64,000 bases of DNA, taken from a candidate division WOR-3 bacterium (lineage in GTDB: Bacteria > Hydrothermota > Hydrothermia > UBA1063 > CAJXJZ01). The first letter of the stretch is position 1. The number at the start of each line of letters is the position of its first letter. Below are positions 46,777 through 48,370 of the stretch, one piece after another. The notes under the pieces were generated by a model. It saw only the letters and a list, made by a program, of their open reading frames with translations, was not told the DNA's origin and searched no databases. The translations under genes and the position numbers were made by a program. Where the stretch lies: assembly GCA_027038175.1 (NCBI GenBank), contig JALVYB010000051.1:28021-92020 (forward strand), in the 5' to 3' direction.

Positions 46777-46849
46777 GTTAAAATGATAAAAGTTTCCAAT
46801 GGTAAATCAAAAATTGACCGATTACATGGATAGCCTTATTATAACATAT

Positions 46850-47884
46850 ATGAGGGAAAATGTTTTTGCTCCAATTAAAAAATTAGAAATATCCAATTTT
46901 AAATCCATCCGCTCAGTGAGTCTGGAGACAAGCAGGATAAATATCTTTATTGGAGAACCCAATTCTGGTAAAACCAATATCTTGGAAGCCCTTACTATGT
47001 TTTCTTATCCGCATCTGAGGTATTTAAAAGGCATCATAAGATACAACGAACCCATAAACTTATTCTATGACCATGACATAACCCAACCAATTTTAATAAA
47101 GTGTGAAATAGGCTCTAAATTCATTGATTCTGAGGATACAGAGGCTTCCATCACAATCGATTATAACCACTCAGAAATATCTTTCAGAGGAGAAATCCCA
47201 GCTCAGGAAAACAAACAGATAAAAATAGTCTCAGTAGGTGGCTATTACACTTCTGACAGAAATGAATTTAAATTTAACTTTTTTCCTCCTCCCTCTTTAA
47301 TAAAACCTTTTAAATTCAAGGTCCTGGATACATTCGAAGGAGCAGATACAGAAGGATTACGTCCACCTTATGGCAATAATCTGGTTATGCTACTTAAAAC
47401 GAATAAAGAACTACGTAAAAACATTGCTGCAATTTTTTCCAGGTACGGTCTTAAACTTGCTGTAAAATTCAGCGAGAAAAAATTAGAACTTCAGAAAGAA
47501 TCTGAAGGTATAATAATTGCTTATCCATACAACACAATTTCAGATACCCTCCTTAGGGTGGTGTTTTATATCTCTGCGATAAAGACTAATAAAAACTCAG
47601 TTTTAATTTTTGATGAACCAGAATCTTACGCATTCCCTTATTATACTAAATTTATAGCCGAAGAAATAGCACAGGATATCACCAATCAGTATTTTCTCTC
47701 CACCCACAATCCGTATCTTATATTATCAATACTTGAGAAAGCCCATAAAGAAGACGTGAATATATTTGTAACGCATTTTGAAGACTATGAAACTAAAGTC
47801 AAACTCCTTTCACCGGCTGAGAAAGAGGAACTTCTCGAATTTGACGCCGACCTCTTTTTCAACCTGGAAAAGTTTTTTAAATAA
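46850..47884 (+). CDS. AAA_21/AAA_15-type ABC-like ATPase (OLD/AriA/PtuA-like). The track ORF starts at 46799, and an internal Met is preferred.
   Basis: N-terminal IKKLEISNFKSIRSVSLE...INIFIGEPNSGKTNILEAL is the RecF/SMC-like Walker A. C-terminal VLIFDEPESYAFP (Walker B/D-loop) and LSTHNPYLI (H-loop). Confidence 0.6.
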   Translation: MRENVFAPIKKLEISNFKSIRSVSLETSRINIFIGEPNSGKTNILEALTMFSYPHLRYLKGIIRYNEPINLFYDHDITQPILIKCEIGSKFIDSEDTEASITIDYNHSEISFRGEIPAQENKQIKIVSVGGYYTSDRNEFKFNFFPPPSLIKPFKFKVLDTFEGADTEGLRPPYGNNLVMLLKTNKELRKNIAAIFSRYGLKLAVKFSEKKLELQKESEGIIIAYPYNTISDTLLRVVFYISAIKTNKNSVLIFDEPESYAFPYYTKFIAEEIAQDITNQYFLSTHNPYLILSILEKAHKEDVNIFVTHFEDYETKVKLLSPAEKEELLEFDADLFFNLEKFFK

Positions 47885-48370
47885 GTGAGCAGGTCAAATA
47901 AAAAACAATTATTTGTAGAGTGTACACCCGACGAGATACTGGTTAAATCCCTTATAAACGGCTTATATAAAATCATTCATTCAGGCGGTAAGTCAAAAAT
48001 CGCAAACAGGATAAAAAAGATGAAAAAGCAGGTAGCGATGGTTGACGAAGACCCGGGGAGTACTTCACATCCTTACTATGAGAAACTCAAGACAATTTAT
48101 CAGGATACACAATGCAAAATTATCGTTAAATCAGACACAGCATCAGAAAATGTCATTATTACGATTCAGCCCAGACTCGAGGAATGGCTATTACATACCT
48201 GCAAAATGAATAACATAGACATCAAACTGTATAGTCTCCCAGAAGACGGAGCTTCCCTTCACTCTGTCATAAACCTATACCAATCAAATTACATTCGCCT
48301 TATTAAGGATTTACAAAACACACAATGTTTCAAAAAACTAAAAGAGATACTCCACAAATACTCAAAATAG
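47885..48370 (+). CDS. small partner protein of the ATPase, putative mini-TOPRIM/DUF4276-RloB-like nuclease. The GTG start abuts the ATPase stop.
   Basis: 161 aa. LFVECTPDEILV (conserved Glu) ... GGKSKI ... VAMVDEDPGS (DxD-like) gives a TOPRIM-like E...DxD spacing. Translationally coupled to the ATPase. Confidence 0.35.
   Translation: MSRSNKKQLFVECTPDEILVKSLINGLYKIIHSGGKSKIANRIKKMKKQVAMVDEDPGSTSHPYYEKLKTIYQDTQCKIIVKSDTASENVIITIQPRLEEWLLHTCKMNNIDIKLYSLPEDGASLHSVINLYQSNYIRLIKDLQNTQCFKKLKEILHKYSK

Follow-up and report, generated by a model that had tools for sequence, protein, structure and literature searches.

The gene pair

This report concerns two adjoining genes, here called gene 1 and gene 2, in a stretch of 64,000 nucleotides (nt) from a candidate division WOR-3 bacterium; the whole of this stretch is referred to as the window. 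An earlier note, made from the letters of the window alone, had proposed that gene 1 encodes an AAA_21-type ATPase and gene 2 a short Toprim-like partner and that the two form a candidate phage-defence system of the PARIS/AbiL/DUF4276 class. Both open reading frames (ORFs) were found at the coordinates given there, with the GTG start codon of gene 2 abutting the TAA stop codon of gene 1 (Table 1), and all motifs that had been quoted are present, namely ISNFKSIRS, GEPNSGKTNILEAL, IFDEPE, and STHNP in gene 1 and VECTPDE and VAMVDEDPGS in gene 2. From the results described below, the locus very probably encodes a module of an ATPase and a Toprim nuclease, and the pair can most likely be regarded as a minimal relative, so far uncharacterised, of the anti-virus systems OLD, PARIS, and AbiL.

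For gene 1, the span of 46799-47884 stands as an ORF, but its start at 46799 probably does not. Homologues are mostly 317-345 amino acids (aa) long, cover 93% of the query and begin with M-x-IKxLxIxNFKS, and for this reason the true start is probably methionine 18 at position 46850. Promoter-like sites occur around gene 1 no more frequently than in shuffled sequence, and the sigma-70-like site that precedes this ATG (Table 1) is thus weak evidence. Gene 1 and gene 2 share a reading frame in the window and are separated by the single TAA codon, read-through of which would join them into a single OLD-like ATPase-Toprim protein. Elsewhere, an overlap of 4 nt is usual, which places the two genes in different frames.

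Table 1 Features of the gene pair in the window. Conservation refers to 38 homologues for gene 1 and to 238 family members for gene 2
Feature	Position	Strand	Remarks
Gene 1, compact OLD-type ABC ATPase	46799..47884	+	ATG, longest ORF 361 aa; likely start M18 at 46850, giving 344 aa
Gene 2, predicted stand-alone Toprim nuclease (Toprim core and small helical domain)	47885..48370	+	GTG start, 161 aa
Gene junction	47882..47887	+	TAA of gene 1, then at once GTG of gene 2, same frame
Walker A/P-loop GEPNSGKT, residues 52-59 of gene 1	46952..46975	+	G52, P54, N55, G57, K58 invariant
Walker B/D-loop LIFDEPE, residues 269-275 of gene 1	47603..47623	+	E273, P274, E275 invariant; F271, E272 nearly so
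H-loop STHNP, residues 301-305 of gene 1	47699..47713	+	T302, H303, N304, P305 invariant
Toprim glutamate motif VECTPD, end of strand 1 of gene 2	47915..47932	+	E12 97%, C13 94%, D16 94%
Toprim DxD motif VDEDPG, end of strand 3 of gene 2	48041..48058	+	D54 98%, D56 97%, P57 96%
PRLEEW motif, start of first helix after last core strand of gene 2	48170..48187	+	P96 92%, E99 99%, W101 97%
Promoter-like site TTGACC-17-TATTAT (sigma-70-like)	46814..46842	+	Ends 8 nt before ATG 46850

The ATPase encoded by gene 1

Gene 1 matches the Pfam families AAA_15 (6.3e-16) and AAA_21 (2.1e-11), in each case with a score over the gathering threshold, and a series of PADLOC models comprising AbiLi (1.4e-16), ATPase-Toprim_I-B (1.5e-16), HEC-01A (2.1e-16), AriA (3.1e-16 and 2.5e-12), Old (3.7e-13), GajA (1.8e-12), and HEC-02A (2e-12), in agreement with the assignment to AAA_21-type ATPases. 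The matches in NCBIfam (retron Eco8 effector, RecF, MAD3 with 1.2e-7, and PtuA) are all far under the respective cut-offs. As many PADLOC models match with similar strength, the sequence indicates a likeness to AbiLi, AriA, Old, GajA, and the others at the level of the superfamily only. Walker A, Walker B/D-loop, and H-loop are intact, as is typical of an ABC ATPase of the OLD superfamily, and because they are invariant in 38 homologues the enzyme is expected to be active as an ATPase. Its structural model has a β-rich insertion at about residues 98-171 in place of a coiled coil. The earlier note had named a match to a housekeeping ABC-type system as an outcome that would speak against its proposal; gene 1 turned out to be SMC/Rad50/OLD-like, not transporter-like, and a transporter-type nucleotide-binding domain accompanied by a membrane partner was looked for at the pair and not found.

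The Toprim partner encoded by gene 2

No family match was obtained for gene 2 in Pfam, NCBIfam, or PHROGs, and its sole library match is the PADLOC model mad4 (E = 0.011, 14.5 bits, residues 13-102 against positions 13-110 of a profile of 110). The Pfam models Toprim, TOPRIM_OLD, DUF4435, RloB, and DUF4276 match neither gene 2 nor any of 47 diverse relatives (for DUF4435, at thresholds of E<=1 for gene 2 and E<=0.1 for the relatives), and in PADLOC these 47 gave weak matches to mad4 (3/47), Csa3 (3/47), and AbiLii (1/47). A word-indexed search of 5.8 billion proteins returned only 10 relatives, and a profile search of 1.84 billion representatives returned 962 at the level of E<=0.001, of which 631 reach E<=1e-10, with lengths of 146-166 aa in almost all cases; the family size of about 960 is counted in clusters of 50% identity. 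Among 150 representatives listed, nearly all fall into the same size range, the full range being 112-265 aa. With 161 aa, no match to TOPRIM_OLD, DUF4435, RloB, or DUF4276, and no PADLOC model of its own, gene 2 corresponds well to the unclassified minimal variant that had been suspected.

The AlphaFold model of the gene 2 product is a confident one (pLDDT 90.7, pTM 0.86), in which a hairpin, a fourth core strand, and a bundle of helices at the C-terminus complement a β-α-β-α-β core. The highest structural scores were obtained with OLD proteins, namely the C-terminal catalytic region of a class 2 OLD (6nk8_B, score 9.1, 133 residues aligned) and the Thermus class 1 OLD (6p74_A, 9.0), followed by GajA (8u7i_A, 7.9), PH0156 (2p62, 7.3), the retron Ec67 Toprim (6.7), and AriB (6.6, 20% identity), with generic Rossmann and receiver folds at 7 or less over about 90 aligned residues. 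The top matches are OLD DNA nucleases and not RNase M5. Foldseek gave no match of the model to the PDB at E<=0.001, and a profile built from 47 family members found nothing relevant among PDB sequences.

As in the Toprim domains of the OLD superfamily, a conserved glutamate follows strand 1 of gene 2 and a DxD motif follows strand 3, the distance between E12 and D54 being 42 residues, in line with the spacing of about 40 described before; these residues are near-invariant in 238 relatives (Table 1). A predicted Toprim core and an acidic cluster are both present. H32 (94%) and K36 (89%) are conserved as well. The two-metal site of the Burkholderia class 2 OLD comprises E400, E404 (+4), D455-x-D457, E508 with T506, and K562, of which E508 is a ligand of metal B, and the first helix that follows the Toprim core harbours both E508 and T506 (PMC6755086). 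The order E12, D16 (+4), D54-x-D56, and E99 in gene 2 parallels E400, E404, D455-x-D457, and E508 of that enzyme, and E12, D16, D54, D56, and E99 may thus form an OLD-like two-metal site, the correspondence being one of residue order and secondary structure rather than of superposition. The conserved residues differ from the DD/D/T/K pattern that characterises receiver domains.

Conservation of the pairing

When one genome per GTDB species was scanned, 141 relatives of gene 2 were obtained, and 80 loci from other genomes were fetched. A homologue of gene 1 is present on the same strand for 77 of the 78 small-protein ORFs in these loci (phmmer E 1e-32 to 1e-90); it is located no more than 20 nt upstream of the gene 2 homologue in 73/78 and overlaps it by 4 nt in 46/78 and by 1 nt in 12/78. 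The pairing of the ATPase and the mini-Toprim protein is far above chance. A 360-aa AAA_15/21 gene also lies directly upstream in all of the close relatives P0002-P0010. In an all-against-all clustering of the flanking ORFs of the 80 loci no conserved third gene emerged, the next commonest cluster being found in four loci, and a third component of the module was accordingly considered and rejected, since only the two genes recur. Neither a helicase nor a reverse transcriptase is conserved near the pair in the 80 loci. In six loci from metagenome-assembled genomes (L004, L014, L020, L033, L062, L080), the ATPase gene is split into two ORFs next to an intact Toprim gene, which could be due to sequencing frameshifts or to real inactivation of the ATPase.

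Distribution and mobility

Of the 80 loci, 34 are from archaeal and 46 from bacterial hosts. On the archaeal side, Thermococci, Methanophagales, Syntrophoarchaeum, Methanoperedens, Asgard lineages, Bathyarchaeia, and Thermoplasmata are among the groups represented, and many of the archaeal members stem from thermophiles and from anaerobic methane-cycling consortia; Thermococcus aggregans, for example, has a homologue (P0210). On the bacterial side, the groups include Dehalococcoidia, Bacteroidota, Verrucomicrobiota, WOR-3, Calescibacterium, Nitrospirota, and Desulfobacteria. The pair moves horizontally and does so across domains: the nearest neighbour of the ATPase belongs to the other domain in 14 of 72 cases, and identities between domains reach 71-72% (for example Spirochaetota or Desulfobacteria with Syntrophoarchaeum, Syntrophaceae with Methanoperedens). 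In keeping with this mobility, the genes that flank the pair vary from lineage to lineage. Among full-length copies, the ATPase of the window is closest to archaeal ones (about 48%).

Its closest relative overall, with about 71% amino-acid identity, is encoded in another WOR-3 metagenome-assembled genome (JALVLE010000253.1, L035:3008-4255), where the ATPase gene is broken into fragments of 69 and 188 aa and about 290 nt are absent, from the C-terminus of the ATPase through codon 75 of the Toprim gene, which thereby lacks its N-terminal catalytic half. The flanks of this locus are not syntenic with those of the window. This copy could be decaying or could reflect an assembly error, and the same could hold for the fragmented ATPase genes in several other loci. 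With the closest WOR-3 relative fragmented and the catalytic Toprim half gone, the pair appears to be dispensable, which we count in favour of an anti-virus system.

Three settings connect the pair with mobile elements or with defence. The provirus of Geoglobus ahangari pleomorphic virus 1 (GahPV1, BK065157.1), an archaeal pleolipovirus, encodes the pair as gp15-gp16 (L090:5020-7174, corresponding to gp14-gp17); two winged helix-turn-helix regulators bracket it, and downstream, at a distance of about 2.5 kb, lies a RelE/ParE toxin gene. In the publication that describes this virus, gp15-gp16 are not mentioned. In L030:315-7041, L085:286-7062, and L087:85-6264, the latter two being copies on one contig (DAINAU010000004.1), the pair lies between the adenine methylase HmaB/DUF1156 and the ATPase HmaC/DUF499 of an Hma/BREX-related type 1 locus, a methylase-based setting seen in only 3 of the 80 loci. 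In nine loci of one clade of metagenomic genomes (L001-L009), finally, the pair is fixed between rsmI and metG, and the DDE and IS110 transposase genes and the BrnA and HicB antitoxin genes around it vary between genomes.

Comparison with known systems

Systems of an OLD-type ATPase and a Toprim domain, such as P2 Old, Gabija, PARIS, AbiL, and MADS3-4, are a major theme of prokaryotic immunity. Split ATPase-Toprim pairs are known from PARIS, with DUF4435 as the partner domain, from AbiL (RloB), and from MADS3-4 (DUF4276), and all characterised ones are anti-phage systems (PMC11464382, PMC12065111). The placement in a PARIS/AbiL/DUF4276 class by the earlier note held at the level of the superfamily, as seen from the PADLOC matches, but not as membership in any of the three families, none of whose partner domains is matched by gene 2.

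In PARIS, too, the two proteins are encoded by separate genes, with the AAA_15/21 ATPase first and the Toprim nuclease second, and both PARIS and the present pair can be carried by viral elements. However, AriB has about 300 aa and a DUF4435 domain (PF14491), whereas gene 2 has 161 aa and matches neither DUF4435 nor, in PADLOC, AriB; AriA has a mass of about 55 kDa, whereas gene 1 has about 320-345 aa and matches AriA mainly in the N-terminal P-loop region, and the models AbiLi, HEC-01A, Old, and GajA are matched by gene 1 besides AriA. Class 4 OLD proteins, to which PARIS corresponds, are restricted to bacteria (PMC12796447), whereas the present pair is about evenly archaeal and bacterial.

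With OLD classes 1 and 2 and GajA, the pair shares the order of the acidic residues of the two-metal site in gene 2 and the ATPase superfamily of gene 1. ATPase and Toprim domain are fused in those proteins, whereas they are separate polypeptides in the window and in 77 of 78 other loci, which sets the pair apart from the single-polypeptide OLD classes 1-3. Moreover, gene 2 is about 40-50 residues shorter than the C-terminal region of OLD and is not matched by the TOPRIM_OLD model, and the UvrD/GajB helicase partner of Gabija and class 2 is missing at the pair, as is a conserved reverse transcriptase of the class 3 kind.

AbiLi is the best PADLOC match of gene 1 (59 bits) and covers it nearly from end to end (residues 26-323 against positions 2-308 of 340), and the AbiL system has the same order of two genes with a small Toprim partner. 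Yet this score is of superfamily level, true members of the family having E values of 1e-50 to 1e-90 against gene 1, and AbiLii/RloB (PF13707) does not match gene 2; the one relative among 47 that matches AbiLii does so with E = 0.01. A resemblance to MAD3-MAD4 of MADS is seen in the mad4 match of gene 2, which is below significance, in those of 3/47 relatives, and in the MAD3 match of gene 1, and in MADS and Menshen the DUF4276 proteins, too, are small Toprim proteins that stand alone, are paired with an OLD-type ATPase, and are able to reside inside methylase-based defence loci. Here, however, the Pfam model of DUF4276 (PF14103) does not match, and the pair is usually solitary, in contrast to the eight-gene MADS operon (mad1-8). 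Hma-embedded candidate systems are represented in PADLOC by HEC-01 and HEC-02, and OLD-ABC 'backup effector' pairs have been described for BREX-related loci (PMC12839542). L030, L085, and L087 have the layout of such embedded pairs, and gene 1 also matches HEC-01A and HEC-02A. Nevertheless, the embedded copies match no partner model of PADLOC, HEC 'B' included, and reach only 1e-13 to 1e-15 with the 'A' models.

Because the defining test for the partner domain fails for PARIS, AbiL, and MADS3-4, and because the two proteins are not fused as in OLD classes 1-3, we regard the pair as a new and minimal partner family that belongs to the known kind of OLD-ABC ATPase and Toprim systems rather than as a category of its own, although the ABC ATPase classification of Krishnan et al. 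(2020) may already list such neighbourhoods.

Proposed function and alternatives

We propose that the pair constitutes a 'split OLD' enzyme, in which gene 1 would provide the ATPase and gene 2 a minimal Toprim nuclease with the two-metal site outlined above. Both genes would be translated from one transcript by translational coupling, and their products would be likely to form a complex. An oligomer of the ATPase may act as sensor and switch that keeps the nuclease inactive until a trigger, for example a viral nucleic acid or protein or an altered nucleotide state, causes it to release or activate the nuclease, which would then cut nucleic acid and thereby block the replication of a virus or another invading element. 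In PARIS, the ATPase sequesters the nuclease until the system is triggered (PMC11464382); by analogy, control could be exerted either in this way or, as in OLD and Gabija, by allosteric gating of the activity. PARIS acts on tRNA, whereas OLD and Gabija act on DNA, and either could be the target here. Considering its relatives, its mobility, and its contexts, we regard a role of the pair in defence or conflict as fairly probable. More tentative is the further proposal that it represents a distinct, unnamed split-OLD class and, with about 320 + 155 aa, the smallest of all known ATPase-Toprim machines of the OLD type, which would be freely exchanged between archaea and bacteria including hyperthermophiles, be borne by archaeal viruses, and function on its own in abortive infection or exclusion, with a trigger and a substrate unlike those of PARIS, AbiL, and Gabija.

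Several observations weigh against an anti-viral function. The 141 immediate neighbours in the other loci are mostly unrelated housekeeping genes and not defence genes; no homologue of gene 2 was found in 72,556 plasmids, and only one of 50,697 phage records contains one, these collections consisting mostly of cultured mesophiles; this scarcity also speaks against a strongly mobile lifestyle of the pair. For the ATPase, one partial match was found on a Parabacteroides plasmid. No paper on the family and no experiment on any member were found in the literature, and Cran1 of the Sulfolobales, an OLD-family protein that acts in the cell cycle, demonstrates that this family is not always defensive (PMC12796447).

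Among the alternatives, the one that fares best, although unlikely, is a selfish addiction or exclusion module, in which a nuclease toxin restrained by the ATPase would stabilise itself or its element or would exclude superinfecting viruses on behalf of a resident provirus. The compact, overlapping two-gene layout indeed resembles that of toxin-antitoxin operons, transfer is strong, and both the proximity of a RelE toxin gene in the pleolipovirus provirus and the antitoxin and transposase genes adjoining the pair in L001-L009 would suit such an element. Most copies, however, are chromosomal and have no recognisable mobile element around them, plasmid copies of gene 2 were not found, and the addiction module is hard to tell from abortive-infection defence in any case, as PARIS and P2 Old are carried on mobile elements, too.

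Somewhat less likely still, although it is the main rival in terms of mechanism, is a non-immune role in genome maintenance, with the pair serving as an ATP-regulated nickase together with reverse gyrase and repair genes, or acting on chromatin in the manner of Cran1. The divergent reverse gyrase gene and the adjoining AlkD-like gene of the window (see below), the prevalence of housekeeping genes next to the pair elsewhere, an Lhr-type helicase gene adjoining it in four loci of Thermococci, the fixed chromosomal position between the genes for RsmI and MetRS in the L001-L009 clade, and the example of Cran1 (PMC12796447) would be compatible with this role. Against it stands that over the 80 loci no neighbour recurs, reverse gyrase included. 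Cran1 is inherited strictly vertically (PMC12796447), and a Cran1-like nickase is disfavoured because the pair, by contrast, is patchily distributed, has recently crossed between domains at identities of up to 72%, is carried by a provirus, and is sometimes decayed, as in the pseudogenised copy in L035 and the fragmented copies in several other genomes.

A function in RNA processing, with an RNase M5-like Toprim enzyme that would be loaded or regulated by the ATPase and would act on cellular RNA in rRNA or tRNA maturation, seems improbable. Toprim RNases do exist, as exemplified by RNase M5 and the tRNA-cleaving AriB, OLD and RNase M5 share the two-metal site (PMC6755086), and the substrate cannot be read from the sequence of the pair, but the patchy occurrence, the horizontal transfer, and the pseudogenised copies speak against a core role in RNA maturation, as do the OLD DNA nucleases, rather than RNase M5, as best structural matches. 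Least credible of all is that gene 2 is a receiver- or CARF-like regulatory domain that merely resembles Toprim, as the weak Csa3 matches in 3/47 members and the lack of a Foldseek match to Toprim above noise might suggest, since the glutamate, the acidic residue at +4, the DxD motif, and the helix-borne glutamate fit Toprim two-metal chemistry and not the receiver signature, and the obligate partner is an OLD-type ATPase.

Should the anti-virus function proposed above apply, the pair would be a candidate for an anti-viral system of archaea and thermophilic bacteria; if not, it would join Cran1 as the second known OLD-type enzyme that serves a cellular function. To our knowledge, the characterised examples of OLD-type ATPase and Toprim systems are almost all from mesophilic bacteria. 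The concept itself is familiar; the family, however, is large (about 960 clusters at 50% identity) and about half archaeal, and defence-annotation pipelines miss the gene 2 family because it is absent from Pfam, NCBIfam, PHROGs, and PADLOC 2.0. Its small size would make the pair a convenient model for the gating of a Toprim nuclease by an ABC ATPase.

Genomic neighbourhood in the window

Reverse gyrase is encoded on the minus strand (43297-46776; TIGR01054, 1197 bits), divergently from gene 1, as had been described. The pair had also been said to be flanked by DNA-repair genes, which is justified for the AlkD-like neighbour (PF08713, 7e-34) but not for the radical SAM gene at 48392-49282 on the minus strand. 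The product of the latter is of the Rv2578c/PA0069 type (NCBIfam, 1.4e-53, below cut-off), and because the function of this type is unknown, the DNA-repair label is unjustified; a likeness of this product to 'radical SAM mobile pair protein B' (6.8e-29) was seen as well. A functional tie of the pair to reverse gyrase and the repair genes was considered and rejected, as reverse gyrase is absent among the 141 immediate neighbours elsewhere. Because the neighbours differ in every lineage, the linkage to the reverse gyrase, AlkD-like, and radical SAM genes is specific to the window and incidental.

From 46800 to 50211, the GC content is slightly low, with 0.33-0.37 across the pair, the radical SAM gene, and the AlkD-like gene compared to about 0.40 on both sides, and a tRNA-Asn gene on the minus strand (50136-50211) marks the end of this stretch. 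Neither an integrase gene nor an att-like direct repeat was found for an island bounded by this tRNA gene, and the evidence for such a genomic island is therefore weak. Just past the tRNA-Asn gene, an ORF of 831 aa with a TTG start (50251-52746, minus strand) encodes a large uncharacterised protein that has no Pfam match at E<=1e-5. Genes for TsaB and a RimI-like protein give the window a bacterial context.

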